Made by a program: the position numbers and the translations under genes. Of a stretch of DNA of 64,000 nucleotides, positions 2,795 to 39,071 are shown piece after piece; position 1 is the first letter of the stretch, and every line of letters starts with the position of its first letter. The notes beneath the pieces were generated by a model that saw nothing but the letters and a program-made list of their open reading frames with translations, did not search any database and was not told the DNA's origin. Source of the DNA: Gammaproteobacteria bacterium (GTDB taxonomy: Bacteria > Pseudomonadota > Gammaproteobacteria > Steroidobacterales > Rariloculaceae); contig JAYPDM010000001.1 in the NCBI GenBank assembly GCA_038125265.1, positions 2,830-66,829 of the forward strand, written 5' to 3'.

Positions 2795-2796
2795 TA

Positions 2797-10341: not shown

Positions 10342-10345
10342 TGCT

Positions 10346-12061: not shown

Positions 12062-12063
12062 GG

Positions 12064-12597: not shown

Positions 12598-13066
12598 TCA
12601 TTACATCACCTTTTTACTTTTACTATTCTCATCTTCTCTTGCGGCTGAGAAAGTAAATTACTTTATAGCCTATACCCAGCAAGAAAATGGCATTGTAATT
12701 GAAAATTGGGATGGTTATGAGCCAACGCTTGGATTAAATTTTTCTCAGATCATTGATTATTGCACCTCAACTCATTCTAATTATTCAATACCTACTTTTG
12801 AGGTCTATGATTTGACTGACCTTCAGATCAATTGTTATGACCGCGATGGGAATGAGATTAATGAAGTGCCATTAATCCTAAGTATAGAGAGCCTGGGAGA
12901 TATTTTTAACCTGAGTGGTGCAGAGATTTATTTCACGGATAGAAACTATCCCTACATCAGATTATGGGCAGAATGCATTTATGAGAGATCTGGGGGATCA
13001 AGGTTTACTTTTCCTATAATTTTTCTTAATGATAAAGCCTTTATTTCAAAAATTATTCAACCATGA
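12584..13066 (+). CDS. Hypothetical secreted protein (4 Cys), no recognisable family
   Basis: 160 aa. N-terminal signal peptide FLLLLFSSSLAAE. Overlaps the upstream gene by 14 nt and the downstream gene by 4 nt (ATGA), so it is translationally coupled. Confidence 0.6.
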   Translation: MKKLNHYITFLLLLFSSSLAAEKVNYFIAYTQQENGIVIENWDGYEPTLGLNFSQIIDYCTSTHSNYSIPTFEVYDLTDLQINCYDRDGNEINEVPLILSIESLGDIFNLSGAEIYFTDRNYPYIRLWAECIYERSGGSRFTFPIIFLNDKAFISKIIQP

Positions 13067-14095: not shown

Positions 14096-15409
14096 ATGAT
14101 AAACAATTATCAAATTGTTGGTATAACTTGGCGCGATCATCTTCAAGAAGAGATTGAAAAAATCTCATTAAATGAAGAACAGGTCCTTAAAGCCCTGCAG
14201 TTATTAAAGAAAAAATATCAGGTTGAAGAGTGCGCCTATCTTAAAACCTGTAACAGAATTGAGCTCTTTGTCTATTCAGAAGATCTATCTATACATAAAA
14301 ACATTAGAATGATTTGGCACGAAATCATAGGTGAATTTGGAATAGCAAAATCTGAGAGCATTCAATTTAGATCATGGAGAGGAGAAGGAGCGTTTGAGCA
14401 TCTTTTTATGGTTGCCTCTGGTCTCGATTCTGCCTCTTTAGGAGAAAGTGAAATTTTATATCAGCTAAAGAATGCAAAAGAATTTGCCCAAAAAAATCAC
14501 TTGATTGCATCAGAAATTAACTTCCTCTTCGAAGAGTCATTCAAAGTTGCTGCCCAAATTAAGAGCAATACATTGCTTAACTCAGGAAAACAATCATTAT
14601 CTGAAATCGCTATAAATATTTTTACAAAATCCAATCTATCTGGCAAAGATTTGAATATAGGTCTCATTGGAACATCCCCTGTAATTATTAATGCACTTAA
14701 GTCACTTCTAGAAAGAGGATTTAAGCCTACTTTAATGAATAGAACACTCAAAAATATAAAAGATCTGCAAGATAAGTACCCTATCCAAATGATCAGCTTA
14801 AAAGATCTAAATGCTGGCAATCATCATTTCGATGTAATCTTATCTGCCACAAGTGCTACAGAAGAAATTATCAATGAAGAATCACTAAAAGCCATATTTA
14901 CGAACCAAACAAAAATATATATCGATTTAGCAAGCACTCCTGACGTCTCATCAGATGTATGTAAACGAAATCACATAAACTATTACTCCTTAGATGATGT
15001 GATTGAAAAGGCAAAATACACTCATCAAACTCGTCAAGCAGAAGTAGCAAATGCAAGAGAAATTATTGATAGCTATTTGATCAATTTAAATCAAAAAATT
15101 AATGATAAGAAATACAACTCAATTTATTCTGCAATACAAAAAAGATATCAATATACCGCCTCAGAAGGTATTAAAAGATTAATCAAAAAAAATGCATTAA
15201 AACTTGACCAAGATGCTATGAATGAAATTGATATTTGGTGTTCAGCGCTTGCAAGAAGATTTGCTCACATTCCAACCTTAGGAATAAAAGGCTTACTGAA
15301 TAATGGTCCAGACGGTTCTGTTGAAGCATTTATTGAGGGTCTTGATGAAAAGTTTAAAACTGAACTTAAGCTCGCAATACTAGAAACTAAAGGGGGCAAC
15401 CTTGATTAA
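14096..15409 (+). CDS. hemA: Glutamyl-tRNA reductase
   Basis: 437 aa. Active-site motif LKTCNRIELF. SxLGExEIL-type motif DSASLGESEILYQLK. Central NAD(P) domain IGLIGTSPV. First gene of the heme run. Confidence 0.9.
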   Translation: MINNYQIVGITWRDHLQEEIEKISLNEEQVLKALQLLKKKYQVEECAYLKTCNRIELFVYSEDLSIHKNIRMIWHEIIGEFGIAKSESIQFRSWRGEGAFEHLFMVASGLDSASLGESEILYQLKNAKEFAQKNHLIASEINFLFEESFKVAAQIKSNTLLNSGKQSLSEIAINIFTKSNLSGKDLNIGLIGTSPVIINALKSLLERGFKPTLMNRTLKNIKDLQDKYPIQMISLKDLNAGNHHFDVILSATSATEEIINEESLKAIFTNQTKIYIDLASTPDVSSDVCKRNHINYYSLDDVIEKAKYTHQTRQAEVANAREIIDSYLINLNQKINDKKYNSIYSAIQKRYQYTASEGIKRLIKKNALKLDQDAMNEIDIWCSALARRFAHIPTLGIKGLLNNGPDGSVEAFIEGLDEKFKTELKLAILETKGGNLD

Positions 15410-16298
15410 GATAGGAACCAGAGCCTCTCATTTAGCTAGAACTCAAGCACTTTTGGTTGAGAAAAAACTAAATGATATTGGGATAGAAACTAAAATAGTG
15501 ATCATCACAACTGAGGGCGATAGGAATTTAAATAAGAACTTTTCTGAAATAGGCTCTCAGGGAATATTTGTCAAGGAACTGGAACAGTCATTATTAAAAC
15601 AAGATATTGATATTGCTGTGCACTCAGCCAAAGACCTGCCGATCCAGCTAGATCAAAAATTACAAATTGGTGCCTACCTAAAAAGAGAAGATCCTGCAGA
15701 TATACTGCTTAGCTTCCATGAGATAAATGAAAATGTATTAAAGAGTAAAAACCTAACCATTGGCACTTCATCAATTCGAAGATCTAAATGGATTAGTCAT
15801 TTTTACCCTCATATCATTGTTGAAGGTCTAAGAGGCAATGTACCCACTAGAATAAAAGCTCTAGAAAATATTGATGTAATTATATTAGCTAAAGCAGGTA
15901 TGGACCGTTTAAATAAGTCACCTCTGTCTGATAAACCCAATATCGATCTTAAAAAATTACATATGCATAGGCTTGATCCTAATCAATTTGTATCTGCACC
16001 GGGTCAAGGCGCCATAGCCATTGAATGCTTAAAAGCAAGCAAAGATATACTGGATTCCCTTAATAGAATTAATCATAAAGAAACCCAAACTTGTATCGAT
16101 CATGAAAGGATAATGCTTGGTCACTTGAGTGGTGGTTGCAATGTTCCCCTTGGCGTTTATGTCAAAATGATTAATCAAAATAATTCTTTTGAGATGCATA
16201 TTGCTCATGCATTAAATAACAAATTTATTAAGAAAACATTTCAATACAATCAGATAAATCAAGTTGAAGAAAAAATATTACAAGAATTGAAATCATGA
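15402..16298 (+). CDS. hemC: Hydroxymethylbilane synthase (porphobilinogen deaminase)
   Basis: 298 aa. N-terminal IKIGTRASHLARTQA, plus GNVPTR. The cofactor cysteine motif GGCNVPLG is present. Overlaps hemA by 8 nt. Confidence 0.93.
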   Translation: MIKIGTRASHLARTQALLVEKKLNDIGIETKIVIITTEGDRNLNKNFSEIGSQGIFVKELEQSLLKQDIDIAVHSAKDLPIQLDQKLQIGAYLKREDPADILLSFHEINENVLKSKNLTIGTSSIRRSKWISHFYPHIIVEGLRGNVPTRIKALENIDVIILAKAGMDRLNKSPLSDKPNIDLKKLHMHRLDPNQFVSAPGQGAIAIECLKASKDILDSLNRINHKETQTCIDHERIMLGHLSGGCNVPLGVYVKMINQNNSFEMHIAHALNNKFIKKTFQYNQINQVEEKILQELKS

Positions 16299-17017
16299 GC
16301 ATAAGCGGAAAAAAAATACTTATCACCAGAGATAACGAGGGCAATAAAGATTGGCAAGAGAAATTACGCTCTTTGGGGGCCATAGTAAAGGCCCTAGACT
16401 GTATTAGCATTCATGAATTTAATATGGATAACGAGAAATTAATTGAGATTAGAAGAATAATTGAAGCTTCAGAATATGTGATCTGGACTTCAGCGAGGGG
16501 CGTTTTTTATTCAAGAAAATTTTTTAATGGTCATAATACTTCAAAGTTTTGTGCTGTAGGTATTCCCACCGCTAATGAGATAAAAAAATATTTTGGTGAT
16601 CCTTATTTAATTAGCCAAGAAATGAATGCAAAAGGCCTCAGTCAAATTATTATTAAAAATGAGGACCTTAAAAATAAAAAAATCTTATTACTCTTGGCCA
16701 TCAATGCCTCAGATGTTCTAGAAAAGGAACTTCAAAATGCTGGTGCCAATGTAAAACGAATTAATATCTATGAGACCAAACCAATAATGCTTAATGATCC
16801 AATTTTATTAAGCTCACTAGATGTAGATCATATTTTCGTTGCTAGCCCAAGTGCAGCGAAGGGCCTAAAAAATAATGTAATTTTCGACCGTTCGGTCAAC
16901 GTTTACCCTATTGGGGTGACAACAAAAAAAACTTTAGATAAGTATCAAATTAAAACGCAGCCAATTCCAAAATCCACAGGACTGGAAGGTCTAATAAATC
17001 AATTAAATAATAACTAA
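16295..17017 (+). CDS. hemD: Uroporphyrinogen-III synthase
   Basis: 240 aa. Size, two-lobe pattern (ILITR ... WTSARGV ... FVASPSAAKG) and position between hemC and hemB. ATGA overlap with hemC. This family is weakly conserved, so confidence is moderate. Confidence 0.75.
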   Translation: MSISGKKILITRDNEGNKDWQEKLRSLGAIVKALDCISIHEFNMDNEKLIEIRRIIEASEYVIWTSARGVFYSRKFFNGHNTSKFCAVGIPTANEIKKYFGDPYLISQEMNAKGLSQIIIKNEDLKNKKILLLLAINASDVLEKELQNAGANVKRINIYETKPIMLNDPILLSSLDVDHIFVASPSAAKGLKNNVIFDRSVNVYPIGVTTKKTLDKYQIKTQPIPKSTGLEGLINQLNNN

Positions 17018-17019
17018 CT

Positions 17020-17988
17020 ATGGGTAGAGAGTTTAGAATCAATCAAGAAATCAGGGATAGCATAGCTGAAACATCATTATCGCGCTCAGATCTAATAATG
17101 CCCTACTTTGTAAATGACTCAAGTCATTCTATAGAAATTTCTGCAATGCCTGGAATATTAAACCATTCAATAGGTTCTCTAATTTCTAATGTTCAGGAGC
17201 AGTTAAAATTTGGTATTAGTTCCATGCTTCTCTTCGGAAGTACAGAAAATCAAAAAAATAAAACTAATGATGGTAGCTATGCTTATCACGAAGAAGGCAT
17301 TACGCAGACAGCAGTGCGTGCCTTAAAAAAAGAATTTGGTAATGACCTTACTATTATCACAGATGTGTGTATTTGCTCATTCACAAATCATGGTCACTGT
17401 GGTGTCGCTCAAGGAGAGAATATTCTTAATGATGAGACCCTTCCCATCCTTGCAAAAATTGCAAAAAGTCACGCAGATGCTGGAGCAGATATCATTTCAC
17501 CGTCAGATATGATGGATAACAGAGTGCAATTTATCTCAGATTATTTAAAGGAAGAGATTAATCGAAAGATTCCATTATTTAGTTATGCCGCAAAATTTGC
17601 TTCTTCTTACTATGGGCCCTTTAGAGAAGCAGCAGATTCATCACCTAAATTTGGTGACAGGAAGAGCTATCAAATGGATTACAGAAATTCTAATGAAGCC
17701 ATGAACGAGATCCAGGAAGACCTAGATCAAGGTGCTGATGGAATTATTTTTAAACCTGCTTTAGCTTTTTTGGATATCTTAGCTAGGGCAACCAAAAAAT
17801 TTGATACTAGAAAGTTGGCTTATAATGTCTCTGGTGAGTATTCAATGGTAAAGGCAGCGGGCATGAAGGGATGGATCAATGAAAAAGAAATTATTATAGA
17901 AAATCTTTTTTGCATGAAGAGAGCAGGTGCGACTGACATTATTACTTATCATGCATTAGAAGTTGCAAAAAATAATTGGATTGAATAG
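17020..17988 (+). CDS. hemB: Porphobilinogen synthase (ALA dehydratase), Zn-type
   Basis: 322 aa. Cys-rich metal site DVCICSFTNHGHCGV (Zn-dependent class). Schiff-base lysine regions SYAAKFASSYYGPFR and KPALAFLD. Confidence 0.93.
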   Translation: MGREFRINQEIRDSIAETSLSRSDLIMPYFVNDSSHSIEISAMPGILNHSIGSLISNVQEQLKFGISSMLLFGSTENQKNKTNDGSYAYHEEGITQTAVRALKKEFGNDLTIITDVCICSFTNHGHCGVAQGENILNDETLPILAKIAKSHADAGADIISPSDMMDNRVQFISDYLKEEINRKIPLFSYAAKFASSYYGPFREAADSSPKFGDRKSYQMDYRNSNEAMNEIQEDLDQGADGIIFKPALAFLDILARATKKFDTRKLAYNVSGEYSMVKAAGMKGWINEKEIIIENLFCMKRAGATDIITYHALEVAKNNWIE

Positions 17989-17990
17989 TA

Positions 17991-19280
17991 ATGCATATAG
18001 AAAAATCTAAAAAATTATATGAGCAAGCGTGTAAAGTTATTCCTGCAGGTGTAAGCTCACCGGTAAGGGCCTTCAAGGCAGTGGGTGGTAATCCAATCTA
18101 CATGAAGTCTGGTCAGGGGCCCTTTATTCATGACGTAGATGGTAATCAATACCTTGACTTTGTTATGTCATGGGGCCCACTTATACACGGTCACGCCAAT
18201 CAAAAAATTATTCAAAAAATAATTGAAGCTGCTCATAATGGGACTTCTTTTGGCACGCCTTGTGAGGATGAATTAAACCTCGCAAGGTTTATTGTTGATT
18301 CTTATAAATCCATAGATCAAGTGCGTTTTGTCTCATCAGGGACAGAAGCAGTCATGAGCGCAATAAGACTGGCTAGAGGCTTCACAGGTCGAGATCTTAT
18401 TATCAAGTTTGATGGTTGTTATCATGGACATGTCGATCCCTTGTTGGTTTCTGCCGGTTCTGGCTTAGTTACTCTGGGAAATCCTTCATCTCTGGGAATT
18501 CCACACGAAGTTTCTAAGCAAACCATCTCTCTTCCGCTAAATGATATTGAACAAGTTAAGAGAGCATTTATTGAGTTTAAAGATCAAATTGCAGCTGTAA
18601 TCATTGAGCCAATTCCTGCTAATAACGGCTTATTGCTTCAAACAAAAGAATTTATCTTAGGGCTTAGGGAATTATGTGATGAAAATCATGCATTGTTAAT
18701 ATTTGATGAAGTTATCAGCGGCTTTAGGGTCGCTCAGGGAGGTGCCCCAGAAATATTAGACATCAATCCTGACCTTGTAACATTTGGCAAAGTAATTGGA
18801 GGAGGTCTCCCCGCCGGCGCATTTGGTGCTACTAGAGAGATAATGAATCACATTGCACCAATTGGAGGTGTTTACCAAGCAGGCACTTTATCAGGAAATC
18901 CATTAGCAATGGCTGCTGGCTTTGCAAGCCTACAACTCCTTCATGATGAAAATAGTTGGGTATATCTTGAAAGCCTAGGTTCTTATCTCGAGGAAAAAGT
19001 TAAAGTCATGGACTTTAATGAAAAATTTAATGTTAGTTTTGTCCGACAAGGTTCCATTTTTTGGTTTGCACTTGATACAAATATAGCACCTAGAAGATCA
19101 GAGGATATTAATGCTCAATCAGAGGAAAAATACGCTTCGATATTTAATGGCTTACTAAAAAATAATATTTATATCGCTCCTAGTATGTATGAGGTTGGAT
19201 TTCTATCCACATCACATAATAGAGAACATATAGATCACTTTATTCAATCTTTATATCACTTAATGGAATGTATAAATTAA
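17991..19280 (+). CDS. hemL: Glutamate-1-semialdehyde 2,1-aminomutase
   Basis: 429 aa. IPAGVSSPVRAF, SGTEAVMSAIRLARG, DEVISGFR and the PLP-lysine motif TFGKVIGGGLP. Confidence 0.93.
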   Translation: MHIEKSKKLYEQACKVIPAGVSSPVRAFKAVGGNPIYMKSGQGPFIHDVDGNQYLDFVMSWGPLIHGHANQKIIQKIIEAAHNGTSFGTPCEDELNLARFIVDSYKSIDQVRFVSSGTEAVMSAIRLARGFTGRDLIIKFDGCYHGHVDPLLVSAGSGLVTLGNPSSLGIPHEVSKQTISLPLNDIEQVKRAFIEFKDQIAAVIIEPIPANNGLLLQTKEFILGLRELCDENHALLIFDEVISGFRVAQGGAPEILDINPDLVTFGKVIGGGLPAGAFGATREIMNHIAPIGGVYQAGTLSGNPLAMAAGFASLQLLHDENSWVYLESLGSYLEEKVKVMDFNEKFNVSFVRQGSIFWFALDTNIAPRRSEDINAQSEEKYASIFNGLLKNNIYIAPSMYEVGFLSTSHNREHIDHFIQSLYHLMECIN

Positions 19281-20341
19281 ACCAAAGAAATACCCTTAGA
19301 CTGGAAATTACTTTTGTAGTTCTTCTGGTACTTACTTTTGGTCAAGTAATTTGGTGGATTTATGACCAAATACGGTACACAGAAAACGTCAATAGTAGCT
19401 TATTAAGTCAATATGAAATTGAAGCTGAACTTCTAGAGAGTCAAAATGCCTCGGAACCTTTAAGTATTCTAGACTTCCCATACCTCACCGAGGTAAATGG
19501 AGAGATTATGATTAGTGCAGATGCACTTGCTAATATCGAGGCCGAGAGAAGCTCAAGAATAAACCGTTATTTTTGGGAAGGAAGTTTCTTTATTATGGTT
19601 ATATCACTATGTATTTTAATCATATTTAAAACTATCAGTAAGGATCGGGCTTTGAATCGAAGGCAACAAAACTTTATTGCCTCTATCAGTCATGAATTAA
19701 AAACCCCCCTCACCAGCATGCGTCTTGCCGCCGAGACGATTGGAATAAATAACCATGATGAGAGATCAATCAGAATGGTAAATCGTATCCTCTCCGAGGG
19801 TGATAGATTGCTTCATTTGATCGAGAATCTACTTGATGCGAATAAGCTTGATGAAAAGAAATTCCAAGTTCAAGTCTCTCAATTTGCTATAAATAGCCTT
19901 ATTGAAAAAGTTTTAAATGGTCTTTCGCTTAGAGCTGAAGAAAGTGGAATTGAAATTCAAACAGCGATTAATGCTGATAAGGCAATTAATAATGACCCCT
20001 TAATCGTCTCCATTATCTTGAGAAACATTATTGAAAATGGTGTAAAAGCTTGCGAACAGAGCAATCAAAAGCTTATCAGGGTAGTCGCGAATAGAATTGA
20101 TGATGGAATTGAAGTAGAAGTCATAGATTCTGGCATTGGTATCCAAAAGGAAGAACAGGAAAATATCTTTGATAAGTTTTACCGAGTGGGAGATGAAAAA
20201 TTACGTACAACTTCAGGTAGCGGACTTGGTCTCTATATATGCCGAAAATTAGCAAAACTAACAAATATCTCCATAGAAGTTAGCAGTAAGGGTATTAATC
20301 AAGGATCAACCTTTAAAGTTTTAATAAGGGATATTTTCTAA
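19268..20341 (+). CDS. Sensor histidine kinase (2 TM, ~65-aa extracytoplasmic loop, no HAMP/PAS)
   Basis: 357 aa. H-box FIASISHELKTPLTSM, N-box NIIENGVKA, G1 DSGIGI, G2 GSGLGLYI. Two TM helices at about residues 12-32 and 100-120. Overlaps hemL by 13 nt. Confidence 0.9.
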   Translation: MYKLNQRNTLRLEITFVVLLVLTFGQVIWWIYDQIRYTENVNSSLLSQYEIEAELLESQNASEPLSILDFPYLTEVNGEIMISADALANIEAERSSRINRYFWEGSFFIMVISLCILIIFKTISKDRALNRRQQNFIASISHELKTPLTSMRLAAETIGINNHDERSIRMVNRILSEGDRLLHLIENLLDANKLDEKKFQVQVSQFAINSLIEKVLNGLSLRAEESGIEIQTAINADKAINNDPLIVSIILRNIIENGVKACEQSNQKLIRVVANRIDDGIEVEVIDSGIGIQKEEQENIFDKFYRVGDEKLRTTSGSGLGLYICRKLAKLTNISIEVSSKGINQGSTFKVLIRDIF

Positions 20342-21054
20342 TGTCTAATATCTTGGTAGTAGATGATGAAAAAGTCTTGGGTGAAAGCATTAAAGATGCT
20401 TTAGCCTCTGAGGGATATCAGGTCAAAATCGCATCGAATGGGCAAATTGGTTTTGACCTGATCTCTACCGAGCCTTTTGATCTGATCATATTAGATGTCA
20501 TGATGCCAGAAATAAATGGGATTGATCTTTGCAAGAAAGTCAGAGAAATGAATGTACTTACTCCAATTTTATTTTTGACGGTCAATAATGACCCTGAAGA
20601 TAGAATACTGGGGCTTGAGGCTGGGGGTGACGATTACCTCGGCAAGCCATTTCACTTAAAAGAATTATTACTTAGGACTAGAAAACTACTTCAAAGAACC
20701 CAGTGGTATGCGAGAACTAACGATAGTTTTGCATTTGCAGACATTTATATTGATTTTTCAAGTTACCAAATTGAATCTTGGGATAAGAGACTATATAACC
20801 TGACTCAGAAGGAAGCCATGATACTAAAACTTCTTATTGAGAATGAGGGAGCAACGGTATCTCGCGAAGATATCCTGGAGAAAATTTGGGGTTATGAATC
20901 TTATCCCTCTACTCGAACAATAGATAACTTTATCGTTCGCTTAAGAAAAAGAATCGAACGTAATCCAGAACAACCGACTCATCTGCATACTATAAGAGGC
21001 GTTGGTTATAAATTTACTAAAAATCCATTAGAGAATAATGATCCTGCACTATGA
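20341..21054 (+). CDS. OmpR/PhoB-family response regulator
   Basis: 237 aa. Receiver domain (ILVVDDE, LIILDVMMP, GGDDYLGKPF) plus winged-helix output (TRTIDNFIVRLRKRIE ... IRGVGYKF). TAATG overlap with the kinase and ATGA overlap with hemE. Confidence 0.92.
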   Translation: MSNILVVDDEKVLGESIKDALASEGYQVKIASNGQIGFDLISTEPFDLIILDVMMPEINGIDLCKKVREMNVLTPILFLTVNNDPEDRILGLEAGGDDYLGKPFHLKELLLRTRKLLQRTQWYARTNDSFAFADIYIDFSSYQIESWDKRLYNLTQKEAMILKLLIENEGATVSREDILEKIWGYESYPSTRTIDNFIVRLRKRIERNPEQPTHLHTIRGVGYKFTKNPLENNDPAL

Positions 21055-22064
21055 ATGATAAAAGACTTTTAAACGCCCTTAACCTTAAAGAAAATGACCA
21101 TAGACCTATTTGGATTATGCGACAAGCGGGTAGATACCTACCCGAATACAGGAAGGTCAGGGAAAAGTATAGCTTTAGAGAGGTCTCAGAAACACCCGAA
21201 CTCGCTGCGGAGGTGACACTTCAGCCACTCAAAAGATTTGAATTCGATGCTTCTATCATATTTGCAGATATCATTACTCCACTTAAGGCTATGAATATAA
21301 ATTTTGATTTTAATCCTGGCCCTATTATTGAAAACCCAATCAACAATCCAAAGCAGATTGATGCCCTGCCTGATAAGTTTTATGAGGTTGCCCCAGAGGT
21401 TCAGGCATCCTTAAAATTAGTTAAATCTGAATTAAAGTCTCAGCAAACACTTATTGGTTTTGGTGGAGCACCCTGGACCTTAGCTGCCTACCTTATCCAA
21501 GGAAAAGGACAAAAAGACTTCCCCGCAATAAGGCGCTTTGCGTCTGAACACCCTGAGTCTCTTCAGAGCCTTTTAACTAAACTCAGCGATCTTAGTATCC
21601 AGTACTTTAAAGAACAATTTGAATCAGGAGCAGAAGTTATTCAAATTTTTGACTCTTGGGCTGGTTTGCTTTCTATCAAGGATTGGCAAACATGGATACA
21701 ACCCCATTTACTTCATATTGTTAGCACTCTTAATGCATCTAACATCCCAGTAATTCTATTTCTACAAAATGCAAATCATTTGGTTGAGTATTACTGCGAA
21801 CTTCCAATCAGTGGAATCGGTGTGGATTGGAGAGTTGATTTATCAAAACTGCAATCAAATGTAAAAGATCATATAGCTGTTCAGGGCAACTTAGACCCAG
21901 CTATTCTGCTTGCAGGACCAGAAGTTACGAAAAAGTATGCTATAAATTTACTTAACAATATCGATCCTAAGGGTCATATCATGAATTTAGGTCATGGTAT
22001 TTTACCTAACACCCCCATCGAGAGTGTTCATGCACTAATTGAAGTAATAAAAAATGAGAGATAA
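21051..22064 (+). CDS. hemE: Uroporphyrinogen decarboxylase
   Basis: 337 aa. Signature PIWIMRQAGRYLPEYR. Also FDASIIFADI and the C-terminal NLGHGI. Confidence 0.93.
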   Translation: MNDKRLLNALNLKENDHRPIWIMRQAGRYLPEYRKVREKYSFREVSETPELAAEVTLQPLKRFEFDASIIFADIITPLKAMNINFDFNPGPIIENPINNPKQIDALPDKFYEVAPEVQASLKLVKSELKSQQTLIGFGGAPWTLAAYLIQGKGQKDFPAIRRFASEHPESLQSLLTKLSDLSIQYFKEQFESGAEVIQIFDSWAGLLSIKDWQTWIQPHLLHIVSTLNASNIPVILFLQNANHLVEYYCELPISGIGVDWRVDLSKLQSNVKDHIAVQGNLDPAILLAGPEVTKKYAINLLNNIDPKGHIMNLGHGILPNTPIESVHALIEVIKNER

Positions 22065-22067
22065 ATC

Positions 22068-22781
22068 ATGAAAATTTCAGAAACTACAGGACAAGTTGAT
22101 CTTAGTGAAAAAGGCCTCAATCAAGGTCAGGTGATCTCTCTTGACCGAAGATTATTTATGAAATTTAATGCCTTCTCAGGTCAAATTGACGAAAAAGAAA
22201 TTATAAAAAAATGCAGTGAAATTAATGGCGCTATTTATAGAGACATTAATGATCCAAATGGTATCGGTATTCTCATTCTTAGCGAAGATCCTGCCGAATT
22301 TATCAAGATCAATCAAGAGGTCTTATCTTTACCACCATTCTCTGATCTTGAGCATAAGCATGAATTTGATATGCTTGGTAGGACTTACTCGATCGGATAT
22401 GAAAATGATCTCGAGGAAGTTCTTATAAATAAACCCAAAAATAAAATAAAGGATCCAAATTTTAAATGGTGTGTATGGTACCCACTAAGGCGTGAAAAAA
22501 AGTTTTATGTACTTCCAGCTGACAAGCAAAAAAAGATCCTTGGTGAGCATGGAAATCTTGCTAAGCGCTATGGCTATGCTGGCCTTGCCGTGGATATCCG
22601 TCTAGCCTGTCATGGTCTTGATAAGCAAGATAATGATTTTGTAATTGGGCTACTCGGGCCTGATCTCCATCCTTTATCTGCAGTCGTTCAAGAGATGCGA
22701 CAAACGGAGCAAACAGCTCACTACCTAGAAAGTCTTGGTCCCTTTTTTATTGGCTTAAAAATTTGGGAGAATATCTCATAA
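22068..22781 (+). CDS. Chlorite dismutase-family heme protein, HemQ/ChdC-like (candidate coproheme decarboxylase)
   Basis: 237 aa. The C-terminal half (WYPLRREKKFYVLPADKQKKILGEHGNLAKRY ... HGLDKQDNDFVIGLLGPD ... FFIG) parallels Bacillus/Listeria HemQ (FYPMDKRR...W-Y-x-L ... MRAHG ... GLDD-x-x-WGVTLF ... FFVG), including the proximal His. It lies between hemE and hemH. Confidence 0.7.
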   Translation: MKISETTGQVDLSEKGLNQGQVISLDRRLFMKFNAFSGQIDEKEIIKKCSEINGAIYRDINDPNGIGILILSEDPAEFIKINQEVLSLPPFSDLEHKHEFDMLGRTYSIGYENDLEEVLINKPKNKIKDPNFKWCVWYPLRREKKFYVLPADKQKKILGEHGNLAKRYGYAGLAVDIRLACHGLDKQDNDFVIGLLGPDLHPLSAVVQEMRQTEQTAHYLESLGPFFIGLKIWENIS

Positions 22782-23815
22782 TGAATGAATATGATTCACT
22801 CTTGATTCTCTCTTTTGGTGGGCCAGAGGGTAAAGAGGATGTCTTGCCATTCCTAAGAAATGTACTTAAAGGCATTCCGGTAAAAGAGGAAACCTTTGAA
22901 GAAATTCAAGAGCGTTACGATCTATTTGATGGAGTGTCACCTATCAATGCCAATACAAGACTATTCATCGATGCCTTATCAAAAGCCCTTAAATTAAAAA
23001 GAATCATGCTTCCCATTTACTGGGGCAATCGAAATTGGCATCCGATGCTTAGCGATACGATGCAACAAATGAAGCAGGATGGAAGAAAAAAAACACTTGT
23101 ATTCGTTACAAGTATTTTTAGTTCCTATAGCGGATGCAGGAAATACCGCGAGGATCTCTATGAATCAAGCGCAACCATTGAGCATTCGATAGAGTTCGAT
23201 AAAATCAGGAATGGCTATAATCATCCTGGCTTTATTAAGGGAATTGCAAGTTGCATCAATGAGGTGATCAAAAGTAATAATCTGAGCAAAGATACCCAAG
23301 TATTTTTCACTGCACATAGTTTGCCAATCTCAATGGCAGAAAAAACAGAGTACCAAAATCAGCTCCTTGATAGCTGTCAATTGGTCGCAAATGAGATTGA
23401 ATTAAAAAACTGGAAGCTGTGCTATCAGAGCAACAATGCATCTTATGGAAATAAATGGTTAGAGCCAACGATTGAAGATGAAATAGTAGCTATGGGCCAA
23501 GTCCCTGAAAAAGAATGCATTGTGATGCCTATCGGATTTGTCTGTGATCATATGGAAGTTGTACTTGATCTTGATATTGATGCAAAAAATATCGCTTTGG
23601 AGAACGATGTAAACCTCTACAGAGCACCAACACTTGGTATTAACGAAAGCTTCATAGATATGGTGGTAGATCTTATCGACGAAAGAATACAAAAAAGAGA
23701 AGAAAAAAAGTTTCTTGGAGAAAGAGGCCCCAATCATAATCAATGCCCAATAGACTGCTGCCTCTCAGGCAGGCCTGGAAATCCAAAGCCTTCACTATGT
23801 GGTGAAGTTAGCTAA
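22781..23815 (+). CDS. hemH: Ferrochelatase with Cys-rich C-terminal extension
   Basis: The ORF track gives 22763. I prefer the ATG at 22781 (TAATG overlap with the previous stop), giving MNEYDSLLILSFGGPEG. Motifs FTAHSLP and VCDHMEVVLDLD. The C-terminal tail is QCPIDCCLSGRPGNPKPSLCGE. Confidence 0.9.
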   Translation: MNEYDSLLILSFGGPEGKEDVLPFLRNVLKGIPVKEETFEEIQERYDLFDGVSPINANTRLFIDALSKALKLKRIMLPIYWGNRNWHPMLSDTMQQMKQDGRKKTLVFVTSIFSSYSGCRKYREDLYESSATIEHSIEFDKIRNGYNHPGFIKGIASCINEVIKSNNLSKDTQVFFTAHSLPISMAEKTEYQNQLLDSCQLVANEIELKNWKLCYQSNNASYGNKWLEPTIEDEIVAMGQVPEKECIVMPIGFVCDHMEVVLDLDIDAKNIALENDVNLYRAPTLGINESFIDMVVDLIDERIQKREEKKFLGERGPNHNQCPIDCCLSGRPGNPKPSLCGEVS

Positions 23816-23819
23816 AAAA

Positions 23820-25172
23820 ATGCCTGAAGTATTTGATGCGATTATCATTGGTGCAGGTTTAAGCGGTCTCACTACAACTAAATATCTAAAAGATGCCAAT
23901 ATAAATACGCTAACACTTGAGGCATCTGACATCCCAGGCGGTCGACTAAGATCTATTGAAAATAAAGATAATTCTTTTGAATTTGGAGGTACTTATATCG
24001 GACATCATTATCATCGCTTTCAAAATTTAGCCAAAGAGCTCAATTTAACTACTATCGATGTGACTCCATTGATTAGCTTTTTTAAAAAACAAGATCTGGT
24101 CATAAATAAAAAATTAATTCATCAAGATGACTGGGAGAATCATAAGGAAAATACCTTGGATAAAGATCTAAAATCTATCTTACCCTGGAATCTGCATCGC
24201 ATCATTTTAGAAAAATATAACCCTTTTGATTCACCTGAAGCATGCCTTACTGCAGGAACCAAAGATCAATCTATGAAAGATTGGCTTCAAAGTCTGGGCT
24301 TTGATGACCAACAAATAAAATATATCTATGGAATGAATTTAAGCTATGGGACTGATGCTGATTCAATTTCCTCGCTGCAATTAATGCATCGAGCAAGTTT
24401 TTCTAAAAGACAAAGATCAGAATCTAAAGTTATTGGATTCACCTTGCTTGAAGGCATGAATGAACTAGCTAATCGGTATATCGATCATTTTAATTTAAAC
24501 ATATTATTCAAAAATCGAGTCAATAAGATCGTTAAAGAAAAAAGTCTTTTTTCAGTATCCTGTGAAAATGGAAATGAGTTTAGGGCGGAAAGAATTGTCC
24601 TCACTTGTGCCCCATCTACACTTAAAAATATAACATTTGATGATCATTCAAAAGAACAAAGGATTCAGTTTGCTGCAGAATTGCAATCCCAGCCCATGTT
24701 CCAAATTCATTTTAAGCATAAAAAGAATTTCTGGGAGCAAGATGGATATTCTCCGGCTATATTCTCTAATGAATATCTTGGGATGTGCTATCCAGTTAGG
24801 AATAAAGTTGATCCTGAGGAGATCATTGGTTTTACTGCTTGGGTTATGGGACAGAAGGCATTAGATCTTATCAAGCTTTCTGAAATGGATGCTTGCTCAG
24901 TTATTATAAATAATCTCCAGGAGATAAGACCGAGCATGAGAAATGCTATTGAATTAACTCATCTCAATGCCTGGTCGCATGAAAAAGATTTTTTAGGAGG
25001 GTGGACGTATTTCAAGCCAAACCAGTTCTTAAAATGGCATAAGCTTTTACAGTCAGAGAAAAGTAATATTTTCTTTTCTGGAGAGCATGCTTCTATTAGC
25101 TCGAGGGGAATAGAAGGCGCTATTGAGTCTGGAGAAAAGACTGCGAAAGAACTTTTAAATTCTATTCATTAA
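23820..25172 (+). CDS. Flavin amine-oxidase-superfamily oxidoreductase in the HemY/CgoX slot (function uncertain)
   Basis: The ORF track gives 23799. The ATG at 23820 gives MPEVFDAIIIGAGLSGL (GxGxxG), then EASDIPGGRLRS. C-terminal W-x-x-x-K-D-F-x-GGW-x-Y ... IFFSGEHASISSRGIEGAIESGEKTA looks more like monoamine/polyamine oxidases than like Bacillus HemY. Only its position after hemH suggests a porphyrinogen oxidase role. Confidence 0.6.
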   Translation: MPEVFDAIIIGAGLSGLTTTKYLKDANINTLTLEASDIPGGRLRSIENKDNSFEFGGTYIGHHYHRFQNLAKELNLTTIDVTPLISFFKKQDLVINKKLIHQDDWENHKENTLDKDLKSILPWNLHRIILEKYNPFDSPEACLTAGTKDQSMKDWLQSLGFDDQQIKYIYGMNLSYGTDADSISSLQLMHRASFSKRQRSESKVIGFTLLEGMNELANRYIDHFNLNILFKNRVNKIVKEKSLFSVSCENGNEFRAERIVLTCAPSTLKNITFDDHSKEQRIQFAAELQSQPMFQIHFKHKKNFWEQDGYSPAIFSNEYLGMCYPVRNKVDPEEIIGFTAWVMGQKALDLIKLSEMDACSVIINNLQEIRPSMRNAIELTHLNAWSHEKDFLGGWTYFKPNQFLKWHKLLQSEKSNIFFSGEHASISSRGIEGAIESGEKTAKELLNSIH

Positions 25173-26154
25173 AAAGATATTTCTCCGGTACCGGGATATC
25201 TTTAATCTTATTTAAATACTCGTCTCGATAGTCTAAATCGAATATTTTAGCAATATCATCCTTTTTTAAGTGCGATGATAATAAACTGATGAAATCTATA
25301 AGGTATGTTCTTGTAATCATTGACTGAGGAATACCAATCCATGTAGTGAGCTCTGGAAATAGTTTTCTAATATCTAACACATAAAGATCATTCAAATCAT
25401 TTGGCTCTATGGCCATTGAGGCAACAACACCAACGCCCATGCCCTTTCTAACATAAGTCTTTATTATGTCGGCATCTCTGGCAGTAAAGGCTATCCTTGG
25501 GGTTAACCCCTGGCTCTCAAAAGCTTGCAAAAAGGATGATTGTCCCTGAACGCTAAAAATATAAGTTACTAATGAATGCTTAGATAAAATTTCTAGGTTT
25601 ATGTTTCTTTTGTCCTTGGCTAGGGGGTGGCTTTTGGGGACAATAGCTACTCGACTCCACCTATAGATAGGAATTTGAAGGAGTTCATTGTTAAATGTAT
25701 TAAGTCCACTCGCAATAACACAATTGACTCTTTTTTCCCTGACTAACTCATCAATTTGCTCAGAGGTTCCCTGGTGAAGCTCTAGATCAATTAATGGGAA
25801 TTTATCTGCAAACTGCCTAATTATATCAGGGAGCACATATCTTGCCTGAGTGTGAGTTGTTCCAATTGATAAAACTCCCCTCTGTTCGCCTTTTGACTCT
25901 ATAGCAAAATTTTCAATTTCATCAATATCATTTAAGACCCTCTTTGCTCGCTCATATACTTCTTGCCCAGCATCAGTCAAGGAGGTCAAGCTTTTACCCT
26001 TTTTTAGAAATAACTTTATTCCAAGCTCTGATTCTAATAGTTTCAATTGCTTACTTATTCCTGGCTGACTCGTGAATAGTAATTCTGACGCTGCTGTTAT
26101 GTTTAGCCCACAGTCAACCGTTTGAATAAAGTATCGAAGTTGCTTTAAAGTCAT
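25162..26154 (-). CDS. cysB: LysR-family transcriptional regulator, CysB orthologue
   Basis: 330 aa. Near-collinear with E. coli CysB as I recall it: LRYxxxxV...LNxxxxxExLxTSQPGISKQ, TTHTQARYVLP, GLTPRIAFTARDADIIKTYVRKGMGVGVVASMA and the C-terminal IPVPEK. Confidence 0.85.
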   Translation of the reverse strand: MTLKQLRYFIQTVDCGLNITAASELLFTSQPGISKQLKLLESELGIKLFLKKGKSLTSLTDAGQEVYERAKRVLNDIDEIENFAIESKGEQRGVLSIGTTHTQARYVLPDIIRQFADKFPLIDLELHQGTSEQIDELVREKRVNCVIASGLNTFNNELLQIPIYRWSRVAIVPKSHPLAKDKRNINLEILSKHSLVTYIFSVQGQSSFLQAFESQGLTPRIAFTARDADIIKTYVRKGMGVGVVASMAIEPNDLNDLYVLDIRKLFPELTTWIGIPQSMITRTYLIDFISLLSSHLKKDDIAKIFDLDYRDEYLNKIKDIPVPEKYLFNE

Positions 26155-26158
26155 AAAA

Positions 26159-26170
26159 GTTATTAATAAC
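26159..26170. promoter_or_regulatory. Perfect 12-bp palindrome GTTATTAATAAC just upstream of cysB start
   Basis: Read directly from the sequence. It ends 5 nt 5' of the cysB ATG (complement of 26154). It could be an autoregulatory LysR-type site, a weak hairpin, or an AT-rich coincidence. Confidence 0.3.
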
Positions 26171-26223
26171 TAAATATTAGTAGGTGAAATTATATATAAC
26201 TTTTAACTATAAAGTAAAAAATA

Positions 26224-26315
26224 TGGCGGAGAGAGAGGGATTCGAACCCTCGAAGGACGTATATGCCCTTACTCCCTTAGCAGGGGAGCGCTTTCGACCA
26301 CTCAGCCATCTCTCC
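26224..26315 (-). tRNA. tRNA-Ser (anticodon GCU), type II with long variable arm, CCA encoded
   Basis: Folded by hand from the reverse complement GGAGAGATGGCTGAGTGGTCGAAAGCGCTCCCCTGCTAAGGGAGTAAGGGCATATACGTCCTTCGAGGGTTCGAATCCCTCTCTCTCCGCCA. Acceptor stem GGAGAGA/TCTCTCC. Anticodon stem CTCCC/GGGAG with loop CT-GCT-AA. Variable arm AAGGGC/GTCCTT. T arm GAGGG-TTCGAAT-CCCTC. Confidence 0.93.
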
Positions 26316-26339
26316 AAGTGGATTTAAGTGAAGATTATA

Positions 26340-26495
26340 CTATGACTTTTCTTCGGAACTGACTCTTAAAACTTCATAGGTTTTAGGAGCTTGAATGCCA
26401 ATCTTAGCTTGCTTACCTTTAACAGAAATAAGAACGACTTCTATATCTTTTCCAATTGTTATTTTTTCACCTTGCTTTCTTGAAATAACAAGCAT
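26340..26495 (-). CDS. csrA: Carbon storage regulator CsrA (short, 51 aa)
   Basis: Below the ORF-track size cutoff and found by hand. MLVISRKQGEKITIGKDIEVVLISVKGKQAKIGIQAPKTYEVLRVSSEEKS compares with E. coli [46 protein letters not shown]. It holds the canonical alaS-csrA-tRNA-Ser position. Confidence 0.85.
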   Translation of the reverse strand: MLVISRKQGEKITIGKDIEVVLISVKGKQAKIGIQAPKTYEVLRVSSEEKS

Positions 26496-26496
26496 T

Positions 26497-29112
26497 TCAA
26501 CTTAACCTCTCAATTAGATTCGCTTCTAATATTTTCAGCGATTCTCTTAACTTACTAAATTCTCTAGAACCAGATTGTGCAAACGTTGGCTTACCTCCGC
26601 CTCTTCCATTTAAAAGTTCATTTGCTTTTGTAACTAAATCTCTTGCATCAACTTGTTTTGCTAAGGATTTATGAACGGAGCAAACAAGAGTCAATTGATC
26701 TTTATCCTTTGATACAGCAATAATTGCTGTATCAACATCCAAATCATGAATATAGTCACAAAGATCTCTTAAGCTATTTACAGAAAGATTCTCAACCTCA
26801 ACCAATGCATATGAGCCTTTAGATAATTTCTTTTTATTTTTATTTATTGTTTCTGCTAGTTTTTTTAAGCGAACCTGTTCTTCTTTTTTTATTAATTGAA
26901 TATGTTCCTTATCCGATTGAACAAGCTGATCAATTTTAGGTAATAGTACATTAATACCTGCGCCTAATTTATTTGAAATTTCTCTCAAAGTAATTTTTGA
27001 AAACTTGAGATGTTCAAGCGCTAACTGTCCCGTATATGCTTCAATCCTTCTAACGCCTGATGCAATGCTTGATTCATCATAGATTTCAAACAAACCAATT
27101 TCGCTCGTATTTGCTACATGCGTACCGCCACATAATTCTTTTGACTCAGTGCCAATCTCAAGTACACGTACTTGATCTTCATATTTCTCATCAAAAAAAG
27201 CCAGAGCGCCTGAACTTATAGCATTTTTATAAGGCATTTCACTTATCTTTGTAGAAACTGCATTAGCAATTTCATCATTTACATACTGGTTGATGCTCTC
27301 AATTTGGTCTTGTGTTACTGGTTTATTATGCGAAAAATCAAATCTAAGCCTGCCCGCCTCGACTAAAGATCCCCTTTGCTGGACATGATCGCCTAGTATT
27401 TTCCTGAGACCGGCATGAAGCAGATGAGTGGCAGAATGACTACCGGCGATTGCTGCTCTACGCCGCTTATCAATTATCATTGTGGCGCCATCAGAAACCT
27501 TGATTTGCCCATTTTTTACTTTGCCAATATGAAAAATCGCCTCATTCTTTTTCTGTGTGTCTAAAACTTCAAAAGTACCATTCTCACATTCTATAATGCC
27601 CGTATCTCCAACTTGTCCCCCGCTTTCTGCATAAAATGGAGTTTCACTTAGCACAATGACAGCCTCGTCATCTTCTTTGATTGATTGCACTATCTTGCTA
27701 TCCAAGAAAATCTCTTTAATCTCGGAGTTGTGTTGTTTCTTTTCGTATCCAAAAAAAATTGAGCTTTGCTCAGAAGATAAATTATCTTTCTCTGCCATAT
27801 TAAATTTCATAGACTCTCTGGCTCGTTTTTTTTGTTCAGCCATTGATTTCTTGAAACCTTCTTCATCAATATTTAAATTAAAGCTTCTGGCTAAATCTTT
27901 AGTCAAGTCCTCAGGAAAACCATAGGTATCATAGAGTTGAAAGACTGTTTCCCCATCTAGAGTTTTGCCGTTTTGCTCTTTTAGCAAATCTACTTGGGCA
28001 TTAAATATTTTCATCCCATGGCTTAGTGTCTGCCCAAATCTCTCCTCCTCTTCCTTAATTGCCAATTTTATGTAATCGCTTTTTTCATTCAAAACCTTAT
28101 AGGCTTCTCCCATATTATTTATGAGTACATCCACTAATTTAAAGAGAAAGGGATCCTTCATCCCTAATAAATAACCATGACGAGCGGCTCTTCTTAAGAT
28201 TCTTCTCAATACGTAACCCCTACCATCGCTTCCAGGCAATACTCCATCAGCAATTAAAAATGATATTGCTCTTAAGTGATCTGCAATAACATTGAGTGAA
28301 CTTGAAAATTCCTTCTGGCGAGTAATTTTTTTTGCCTCCTCGATAAGTGGTACAAAAAGATCAGTATCGTAATTAGAAGTAACTCCACTCATAATCGCAG
28401 ATATTCGTTCGAGACCCATTCCTGTATCCACGGAGGGAGCAGGTAAATTACTTAGCTGACCCTGTGTATCTCGTTCAAATTGCATGAATACGATATTCCA
28501 AATCTCCACAAACCGGTCGCCATCTGCATCTTTTGATCCAGGAGGTCCTCCCTTGATTTTGTCACCATAATCATAAAATATTTCTGAGCATGGTCCGCAT
28601 GGACCTGTATCACCCATGGCCCAAAAATTATCTTTATCATCAAGTGCTACTAGTCGTTTAGGGTCAATACCAATTCCATTGAGCCAAATAGATTTTGATT
28701 CATTATCGGTTTGATGAGTGGTAACCCATAGACGCTCTGAAGGGAGTTGGAGCTCTTTGGTCACATACTCCCAAGCGTACCCAATAGCCTCTTCTTTAAA
28801 ATAATCTCCAAAACTAAAGTTCCCCAACATTTCAAAAAAAGTATGATGCCTTGATGTGTAGCCCACATTTTCTAGATCGTTGTGCTTACCTCCGGCTCTT
28901 AAGCACTTTTGTGATGAAGTGGCCCTACTGTAAGTTCTCTTTTCATTGCCTAGAAAAGCATCCTTGAACTGAACCATGCCAGCATTCGTAAAAAGTAAGG
29001 TAGGGTCATTACCCGGTACCAAGGAACTACTCGATACCTCGGTGTGATTATGTTTTACAAAATAATCTAAAAAAGATTTTCTAATATTTGTAGAGTTATT
29101 TTTAGCCATCAA
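26497..29112 (-). CDS. alaS: Alanine--tRNA ligase
   Basis: 871 aa. FLDYF..HNH, FTNAGMVQFKD, editing-domain HSATHLLH and CGGTHV motifs. Confidence 0.97.
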   Translation of the reverse strand: MMAKNNSTNIRKSFLDYFVKHNHTEVSSSSLVPGNDPTLLFTNAGMVQFKDAFLGNEKRTYSRATSSQKCLRAGGKHNDLENVGYTSRHHTFFEMLGNFSFGDYFKEEAIGYAWEYVTKELQLPSERLWVTTHQTDNESKSIWLNGIGIDPKRLVALDDKDNFWAMGDTGPCGPCSEIFYDYGDKIKGGPPGSKDADGDRFVEIWNIVFMQFERDTQGQLSNLPAPSVDTGMGLERISAIMSGVTSNYDTDLFVPLIEEAKKITRQKEFSSSLNVIADHLRAISFLIADGVLPGSDGRGYVLRRILRRAARHGYLLGMKDPFLFKLVDVLINNMGEAYKVLNEKSDYIKLAIKEEEERFGQTLSHGMKIFNAQVDLLKEQNGKTLDGETVFQLYDTYGFPEDLTKDLARSFNLNIDEEGFKKSMAEQKKRARESMKFNMAEKDNLSSEQSSIFFGYEKKQHNSEIKEIFLDSKIVQSIKEDDEAVIVLSETPFYAESGGQVGDTGIIECENGTFEVLDTQKKNEAIFHIGKVKNGQIKVSDGATMIIDKRRRAAIAGSHSATHLLHAGLRKILGDHVQQRGSLVEAGRLRFDFSHNKPVTQDQIESINQYVNDEIANAVSTKISEMPYKNAISSGALAFFDEKYEDQVRVLEIGTESKELCGGTHVANTSEIGLFEIYDESSIASGVRRIEAYTGQLALEHLKFSKITLREISNKLGAGINVLLPKIDQLVQSDKEHIQLIKKEEQVRLKKLAETINKNKKKLSKGSYALVEVENLSVNSLRDLCDYIHDLDVDTAIIAVSKDKDQLTLVCSVHKSLAKQVDARDLVTKANELLNGRGGGKPTFAQSGSREFSKLRESLKILEANLIERLS

Positions 29113-39036: not shown

Positions 39037-39071
39037 AGAAATTTATGTTTTCAGTATGTAATATTACACAC

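Follow-up and report, generated by a model that had tools for sequence, protein, structure and literature searches.

We analysed a gene at the end of a heme biosynthesis cluster in a stretch of 64,000 nucleotides of gammaproteobacterial DNA (contig JAYPDM010000001.1; the whole 64-kb stretch is called the window hereafter). The gene, located at 23820-25172 on the forward strand and termed the target, encodes a flavoprotein of the monoamine oxidase (MAO) clade which is probably the coproporphyrinogen oxidase of its pathway, i.e. an MAO-clade replacement of CgoX in the coproporphyrin-dependent (CPD) heme pathway of diderm Gammaproteobacteria. The replacement is most likely a non-orthologous one, drawn from the same superfamily to which CgoX belongs. 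With somewhat less confidence we propose that the enzyme represents a new class of coproporphyrinogen III oxidases, the third after CgoX and CgoN and recruited independently of them, which would derive from the MAO clade and complete the CPD pathway in a large group of related, uncultured diderm Gammaproteobacteria, among them Ca. Rariloculaceae, Ca. Azotimanducaceae, Immundisolibacterales and many unclassified metagenome-assembled genomes (MAGs), with more than 500 species-level genomes carrying a relative. An earlier note on this DNA had left two alternatives for the gene, an unrecognised lineage of coproporphyrinogen/protoporphyrinogen oxidase or an unrelated amine oxidase. We favour the former because the synteny is fixed despite low sequence identity of the orthologues, because the cluster encodes all other steps of the CPD pathway and because the clade has lost two hallmark residues of amine oxidases and gained clade-specific arginines.

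The target is the last gene of a cluster spanning 14096-25172, in which all genes lie on one strand and either overlap or are separated by gaps of a few bases only. The cluster contains the following genes:

14096-15409, forward strand: hemA, glutamyl-tRNA reductase, the first gene of the cluster (Pfam GlutR_N, 108 bits, and Shikimate_DH; same position in the syntenic locus L001)
15402-16298, forward strand: hemC, porphobilinogen deaminase (Pfam Porphobil_deam, 216 bits)
16295-17017, forward strand: hemD, uroporphyrinogen-III synthase (Pfam HEM4, 104 bits)
17020-17988, forward strand: hemB, 5-aminolevulinate dehydratase (Pfam ALAD, 403 bits)
17991-19280, forward strand: hemL, aminotransferase of the glutamate-1-semialdehyde aminomutase type (Pfam Aminotran_3, 223 bits; position kept in most syntenic loci)
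19268-20341, forward strand: histidine kinase (Pfam HisKA/HATPase_c)
20341-21054, forward strand: response regulator of the OmpR/PhoB type (Pfam Response_reg/Trans_reg_C)
21051-22064, forward strand: hemE, uroporphyrinogen decarboxylase, product coproporphyrinogen III (Pfam URO-D, 373 bits; TIGR01464, 378 bits, cut-off 303)
22068-22781, forward strand: hemQ, ChdC-like coproheme decarboxylase (Pfam Chlor_dismutase, 62 bits; PDB matches)
22763-23815, forward strand: hemH, CpfC-like ferrochelatase with a Cys-rich C-terminal tail (Pfam Ferrochelatase, 244 bits; PDB matches)
23820-25172, forward strand: the target, a cytoplasmic FAD protein of the MAO clade and predicted coproporphyrinogen III oxidase (Pfam, profiles, synteny, tree)

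As assigned from sequence, the cluster covers each step of the CPD pathway from glutamyl-tRNA to heme b save the oxidation of coproporphyrinogen III, and the target is its sole enzyme gene without an assigned role. No gene for HemG, HemJ, HemN or HemF was found among the Pfam-scanned open reading frames (ORFs) of the window, which lie outside the region 53345-63891, presumably the cell-division cluster, and a tblastn search with B. subtilis CgoX detected no HemY-type gene anywhere in the window. The presence of genes for BamD/YfiO (39045-39806) and LpxC (48428-49291) in the window identifies the organism as diderm.

The target is encoded by an intact ORF of 450 codons, starting with the ATG at 23820, ending with the stop codon at 25170-25172 and resulting in a protein of 450 amino acids. 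The hemH stop codon TAA (23813-23815) is followed by AAAA and the ATG of the oxidase gene, so that the position directly after hemH with a gap of 4 nucleotides, as described in the earlier note, agrees with the coordinates of both codons. There is an in-frame GTG at 23799, 5' of this ATG, the use of which would result in an overlap with hemH; since the homologues in the alignment begin at the ATG position, 23820 is the likely start. At its 3' end the ORF overlaps a convergent CysB-like LysR gene (25162-26154, reverse strand) by 11 nucleotides. Scans for promoters and terminators yielded fewer matches than in shuffled sequence and were not used. The translation contains two N-terminal motifs, the first being invariant in a conservation set of 84 distinct family proteins with pairwise identities from 31% to 95%:

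23850-23867, forward strand: GAGLSG dinucleotide-binding motif, G11-G16 (translation; invariant in the 84 family members)
23937-23945, forward strand: GGR motif, 3' of GAGLSG (translation)

The C-terminus, AWSHEKDFLGGWTYF ... IFFSGEHASISSRGIEGAIESGEKTAKELL, is found in the translation verbatim as quoted before. It differs from that of Bacillus HemY, whose sequence GASFEGVGIPDCI we could confirm in PDB entry 3I6D and which is absent from the target.

All placements put the target on the MAO side and not on the HemY side of the flavin amine oxidase superfamily, in line with the earlier assignment as an enzyme resembling MAO, putrescine oxidase or L-amino-acid oxidase (LAAO). The protein matches Pfam Amino_oxidase (PF01593) over its full length (148.4 bits, cut-off 19.8; residues 14-446 on profile positions 1-443), and its Pfam domains comprise only Amino_oxidase and Rossmann-type FAD domains. 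The best PDB sequence matches are human MAO-B (86 bits; phmmer E 1.3e-23) and MAO-A, followed by bacterial amine oxidases, LAAO and putrescine oxidase. A profile built from 17 family sequences raises the MAO-B match to 198 bits (E 2.5e-57) and includes the NicA2 structures 5ttj and 7kho among its PDB matches. At the level of sequence, the resemblance to amine oxidases is thus far beyond chance. The predicted fold gives the same picture: an AlphaFold2 model of the target (mean pLDDT 88.4, pTM 0.88) retrieves in its top 50 Foldseek PDB matches exclusively MAO-A/B, bacterial MAO, cyclohexylamine oxidase, putrescine oxidase and LAAO with TM scores of 0.72-0.79. No CgoX/PgoX structure is present among the 60 listed PDB sequence matches or these top 50 Foldseek matches. 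The IMG annotation of the family likewise is 'monoamine oxidase'.

The identification as a HemY-type CgoX or PgoX was considered and rejected, as the target fails the models, differs in the C-terminal motif, is closer to MAO in sequence and fold and takes a separate position in the tree. It reaches none of the curated NCBIfam cut-offs, scoring 32.2 bits against TIGR00562 (cut-off 97.85), where only the N-terminal FAD motif is matched, 42.8 bits against NF008845 (cut-off 560) and 26.3 bits against NF009081 (cut-off 702), the latter two being the PRK11883/PRK12416 models; the family representative P0210 likewise stays below the cut-offs of the protoporphyrinogen oxidase models. The C-terminal FAD motif of HemY, of the type GxSxxGVG(I/L)xDCI, is not found in the target, which has FFSGEHASISSRGIEGAIESGE where 3I6D has MTGASFEGVGIPDCIDQG. 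A hidden Markov model (HMM) of the 84-member family scores 187.5 bits against a MAO-B fragment versus 40.5 bits against B. subtilis CgoX, 31.8 bits against M. xanthus PgoX and 29.4 bits against E. sibiricum CgoX. The relation to CgoX, with 20% identity and 37.7 bits to the B. subtilis enzyme and an hhalign probability of 97.5, is judged from these comparisons as homology at the superfamily level only. The PF01593 match together with the hhalign probability bears out the earlier statement that both families belong to one FAD amine oxidase superfamily. As the target shares this superfamily with CgoX, the proposed oxidation chemistry is plausible.

Profile HMM and tree placement had been suggested in the earlier note to decide between the two sides; the HMM scores point to MAO, and in a rough neighbour-joining tree of 71 sequences the heme-linked sequences form a clade separate from CgoX/PgoX. 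They are monophyletic (bootstrap 86/100), well apart from CgoX/PgoX and sister to a group of relatives with twin-arginine translocation (Tat) signals. This sister family became apparent in a profile search of 1.84 billion representative proteins, resulting in 2219 matches at E <=1e-30. The top two matches, P0210 and P0004, belong to the heme-linked family, and the next approximately 150 (P0211-P0357; 295-540 bits) are proteins of 470-500 amino acids in which the match starts around residue 25-55, most of them having a twin-arginine signal. P0070 is also a member, and the family is represented at 1546-3015 of locus L087. The members lack the amine oxidase Lys, mostly having Gln instead, as well as an equivalent of MAO-B Tyr435, and show an Arg-Gly pair in the C-terminal FAD motif; those tested reach no NCBIfam cut-off. 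Judged from these sequence relations, the heme-linked enzyme seems to be a cytoplasmic branch that arose within a large set of MAO-like flavoproteins, most of which are apparently periplasmic.

Contextual evidence comes from the conservation of gene order. A scan using one genome per GTDB species identified 525 stretches encoding a relative of the target, and the best 80 of these, all from MAGs, were searched by tblastn with the heme proteins of the window, up to ~10 kb being read to either side of the oxidase gene. At least 75 of these 80 species-representative genomes have the oxidase gene directly behind hemE, hemQ and hemH, despite the orthologues being only 31-37% identical. The order hemE-hemQ-hemH-oxidase is also kept on long metagenomic contigs encoding homologues of 33-43% identity, including contigs with unrelated flanking genes (L003, L004). 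The closest genome is a Gammaproteobacteria MAG (L007; 94% identity), and the labels of the 80 loci are mostly Gammaproteobacteria, Ca. Rariloculaceae, Ca. Azotimanducaceae and Immundisolibacterales, a few loci bearing other labels. Complete chromosomes with the gene include OZ244896.1, OZ242031.1, OZ253541.1, OY761822.1 and OZ220680.1. Deviations, besides L052 (described below), are the following: L032 has a 2.6-kb gap before the oxidase gene, in L011 hemH alone was detected, and in L020 and a few short contigs the upstream genes are partly or wholly lost to the contig end. Within ~10 kb of the oxidase gene, a HemY-type gene was found in none of 86 loci by tblastn with B. subtilis CgoX. Three proteins outside the clade, P0070 (29% identity), P0073 and P0075 (both 26%), have no heme genes nearby.

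The operon occurs in two architectures, with and without hemL and the two-component system. In most syntenic loci, including L001, L005 and L009, the two genes of this system separate hemL from hemE. Neither its histidine kinase nor its response regulator reaches the cut-off of an NCBIfam equivalog, and this cluster-embedded system may represent an as yet undescribed regulator devoted to heme synthesis. Several loci carrying the operon (L015, L028, L037, L040, L055, L057 and L063) are labelled by NCBI as Alphaproteobacteria, Acidobacteria or Vicinamibacteria; either these MAGs are mislabelled, or the operon is more widely distributed among taxa or has been transferred.

The partners encoded directly upstream allow us to narrow the substrate from copro- or protoporphyrinogen to coproporphyrinogen, because they appear to be a ferrochelatase of the CpfC type and a ChdC. 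The PDB matches of the HemQ protein are coproheme decarboxylases. Its residues Y138 and H161, aligning with the catalytic Tyr and the proximal, heme-ligating His of C. diphtheriae and L. monocytogenes ChdC, are invariant in all 77 syntenic homologues. The protein is divergent, scoring below the NCBIfam HemQ cut-offs (42 vs 235) and matching the Pfam model with its C-terminal half only. It is part of a very large group with good conservation: a search with it resulted in 7816 matches at E <=1e-10, of which the best 120 are 58-70% identical, and the only public name for this group is 'chlorite dismutase (family protein)'. For HemH, the closest solved structures are all named 'Coproporphyrin III ferrochelatase' (28wn_A with 216 bits, others with 87-114 bits), compared to ~71 bits for human protoporphyrin ferrochelatase, and by these nearest solved relatives it is tentatively assigned to the CpfC class. 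The last ~25 residues of HemH form a Cys-rich tail, QCPIDCC...C, aligning with the C-terminus of 28wn_A (...CEVNCC). This alignment suggests HemH being a [2Fe-2S]-type CpfC like that of Actinobacteria, which is unusual in a gammaproteobacterium.

Comparison of the 84 family proteins revealed 72 positions conserved in at least 97% of the members. Conservation in the family together with pairwise and profile (HMMER) sequence alignments to MAO-B marks the following residues as distinctive:

24198-24200, forward strand: R127, arginine of the heme-linked clade (84/84 in the clade; absent from nearly all Tat-signal relatives)
24390-24392, forward strand: R191, at the position of MAO-B cavity Tyr188 (Arg in 82/84, Lys in 2/84; rare in Tat-signal relatives)
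24702-24704, forward strand: Q295, replacing the amine oxidase Lys, K296 in MAO-B (Gln in 84/84; common to most Tat-signal relatives)
24798-24800, forward strand: R327, at the position of MAO-B cavity Leu328 (Arg in 83/84; also in about half of the Tat-signal relatives)
24996-25004, forward strand: G393-G394-W395, with W395 at the position of MAO-B Tyr398 (Trp in 84/84)
25104-25109, forward strand: R429-G430 of the C-terminal FAD motif (Arg and Gly each in 84/84; MAO-B cage residue Tyr435 without counterpart)

A Lys residue beside the flavin N5 is a hallmark of the amine oxidases of this fold. In the target this position is occupied by Gln295, both in the pairwise and in the profile alignments. 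The aromatic cage formed by two residues in MAO-B, Tyr398 and Tyr435, is reduced to W395, Tyr435 being aligned with a gap or with Gly430. W341 aligns with MAO-B Phe343. Position 394, aligned with the covalent FAD attachment site Cys397 of MAO-B, is Ala in 44 and Gly in 40 of the proteins. Comparison with the Tat-signal relatives separates two groups of residues: R127, R191, W123, Q198, T208 and Q291 set the heme-linked clade apart, whereas Q295, R370 and R429-G430 are common to both. Q295 together with R429-G430 was considered as a signature of porphyrinogen use and rejected, as the Tat-signal sister family has both; the combination of R127 and R191 alone is a signature specific to the heme-linked clade. 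From the alignment we infer that the invariant arginines at cavity positions would suit an anionic substrate such as coproporphyrinogen with its four propionates, and would poorly suit cationic amines.

These data support a model according to which a soluble flavoprotein with non-covalently bound FAD was recruited as the coproporphyrinogen III oxidase of the CPD pathway. HemE would yield coproporphyrinogen III, which the target would oxidise at the meso-methylene bridges to coproporphyrin III, FAD mediating the removal of two electrons in each of three steps and thus of six electrons in total. Iron would then be inserted by the CpfC-type HemH, and the resulting coproheme would be converted to heme b by decarboxylation through HemQ/ChdC. 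The four propionates may be bound by R127, R191, R327 and R429, of which R191, R327 and R429 are located at or next to MAO-B cavity positions in the alignment. The electron acceptor would most simply be O2, a default and not an established feature, and the resulting H2O2 could be used by ChdC.

A variant of this model, which we regard as rather unlikely, retains coproporphyrinogen III as substrate and has the enzyme act as a dehydrogenase transferring electrons to a quinone, a cytochrome or another acceptor instead of O2. The Lys beside the flavin N5 has been linked to oxygen reactivity, and it is replaced by Gln in all 84 proteins. The closest relatives carry Tat signals, and NicA2, which belongs to the MAO family and is exported by the Tat system, uses a cytochrome c. 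A dehydrogenase mode stays within consideration because of this Lys-to-Gln change and the Tat-exported relatives. HemY-type CgoX, however, reacts with O2 and has an apparent Asn at the equivalent strand position, according to a low-confidence hhalign alignment. Moreover, no gene for a cytochrome or a quinone-binding partner is conserved beside the oxidase gene, and an oxidase would provide the oxidant, e.g. H2O2, on which ChdC depends.

Several points weigh against the assignment as coproporphyrinogen oxidase. The assignment of arginines to cavity positions depends on the sequence alignment to MAO-B. Q295 and R429-G430 mark a wider group and not porphyrinogen use, because they are present in the Tat-signal sister family, which in the one case examined (P0070) has no heme linkage. 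The search for CgoX reached up to ~10 kb on either side of the oxidase gene per genome, and a canonical CgoX or CgoN may be encoded elsewhere. Finally, a family member at 10001-11365 of locus L052 has no heme genes within 10 kb and may be a relocated copy or a paralogue. L052 is a high-GC Ca. Azotimanducaceae chromosome, and its protein keeps the arginine signature and has D108 in place of H108; two other Azotimanducaceae loci, L081 and L086, show the usual order hemQ-hemH-oxidase.

In a second alternative, the protein is an accessory amine or amino acid oxidase supplying H2O2 for ChdC or serving another heme-related side reaction, with coproporphyrinogen being oxidised non-enzymatically or by a canonical enzyme encoded elsewhere. 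True amine and amino acid oxidases are the best sequence and fold matches, ChdC uses H2O2 (PMC13564367), and the CgoX search covered the loci and the window, not whole genomes. We nevertheless judge this alternative improbable, as the protein has lost the hallmark Lys and one side of the aromatic cage, the arginines at cavity positions suit cationic amines poorly, no amine transporter or aldehyde dehydrogenase gene is conserved alongside, and it would be strange for at least 75 of 80 genomes to keep an operon encoding all but one step together with an enzyme of purely accessory function.

Activity as a PgoX-like protoporphyrinogen IX oxidase or as an enzyme of dual specificity in a protoporphyrin-dependent route appears highly improbable. 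No other chemistry would be required, and there are HemY enzymes which act on both substrates (PMC13564367), but the operon lacks hemF and hemN and encodes a ChdC with intact catalytic residues, and its HemH is nearest to coproporphyrin ferrochelatases. An unrelated amine oxidase at the operon end by chance, as might be suggested by the position as the last gene, the convergent gene next to it and the IMG name, is scarcely credible given that the adjacency is kept despite differing flanks and 31-37% identity, that the non-clade relatives P0070, P0073 and P0075 have no heme context and that the synteny is not confined to one narrow lineage. Taking synteny, pathway gap and residues together, the sequence evidence thus favours an unrecognised lineage of coproporphyrinogen oxidase over an unrelated amine oxidase.

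The predicted coproporphyrinogen oxidase shares features with several known systems. It resembles HemY-type CgoX (B. subtilis 3I6D; E. sibiricum 3LOV) and PgoX (M. xanthus 2IVD) in the predicted reaction, the pathway position, the use of FAD, the superfamily PF01593, a size of ~450-470 amino acids and solubility without a membrane anchor, and its gene follows hemH just as the oxidase gene does in B. subtilis hemEHY. It differs from them in sequence (20% identity to B. subtilis CgoX), in the C-terminal FAD motif and in forming a separate clade in the neighbour-joining tree. For B. subtilis CgoX, a cavity volume of 1173 cubic angstroms has been reported (PMC10740692). With flavin amine oxidases, i.e. 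MAO-A/B, bacterial MAO (8P84), putrescine oxidase (2YG3), cyclohexylamine oxidase (4I59) and snake-venom LAAO, it shares the two-domain architecture and the GEH...EGA C-terminal motif, these being its best sequence and fold matches, with Trp where MAO-B has Tyr398. In contrast to these enzymes, it has Gln for Lys296, R429-G430 for Tyr435, arginines at the positions of MAO-B Tyr188 and Leu328, no Cys for covalent FAD attachment and no C-terminal membrane helix, and its gene is locked into a heme operon. The Tat-signal MAO-like proteins (P0211-P0357, P0070) have Q295, R370, R429-G430 and many Trp, Asn and Asp positions in common with the target; unlike the target, they have a twin-arginine signal and lack R127 and R191. 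CgoN (YtpQ) of Priestia megaterium catalyses the step predicted for the target and was also first found by comparative genomics; as described, it is an unrelated protein without homology to the amine oxidase superfamily or to other classes of proteins (PMC10965808). HemG (PgdH1) and HemJ (PgdH2) are precedents for non-orthologous porphyrinogen oxidases across lineages (PMC10965808, PMC13564367), differing from the target in their folds, in protoporphyrinogen as substrate and in acting in the protoporphyrin-dependent pathway.

Further genes surround the heme cluster. Directly 5' of hemA, at 12010-14058 on the forward strand, are genes for a cytochrome b561-family protein, a 160-residue protein matching no Pfam or NCBIfam model and a kinase-like protein of the APH family; L001 likewise has the APH gene 5' of hemA. 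Further upstream (7447-11434, forward strand) are the genes of a tripartite tricarboxylate transporter, TctA-TctB-TctC, and behind them that of a DctP-family solute-binding protein, the transporter genes being preceded on their 5' side by a GntR regulator and a flavoprotein resembling succinate dehydrogenase/fumarate reductase. This Tct/DctP region looks like ordinary carbon-uptake content. On the other side of the cluster, a tRNA-Ser (GCT) is encoded at 26224-26315 on the reverse strand, within 26154-26500 (reverse strand) of the window. Between tRNA-Ser and alaS there is a small csrA-like ORF (MLVISRKQGEKITIG...), seen in the raw translation only. The gammaproteobacterial arrangement recA-recX-alaS-csrA-tRNA-Ser is present in the window.

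Recent reviews name two enzymes for this step of heme biosynthesis. A review of August 2026 lists only CgoX and CgoN and states that the reported enzymes seem to cover all heme-synthesising organisms (PMC13564367), and CgoX (HemY) and CgoN (YtpQ) are likewise given as the enzymes of the step elsewhere (PMC10965808). The CPD pathway is described as 'almost exclusively' Gram-positive (PMC10427985), with Proteobacteria mainly using the protoporphyrin route (PMC10740692). We found no report of an MAO-like coproporphyrinogen oxidase in the open-access full-text literature.

Each earlier filling of the porphyrinogen oxidation step, by HemG, HemJ and CgoN, counted as a discovery in heme biosynthesis. 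If our assignment is true, the published list of CgoX and CgoN for this step would be incomplete, and a complete CPD pathway would be at work in abundant environmental Gram-negative bacteria. Automated names such as 'monoamine oxidase' and 'chlorite dismutase family protein' would then conceal the heme synthesis encoded by hundreds of genomes. The MAO scaffold would be shown to be retunable from cationic amines to a tetra-anionic tetrapyrrole, which would bear on the evolution of enzymes and on the selectivity of inhibitors directed against CgoX/PgoX.

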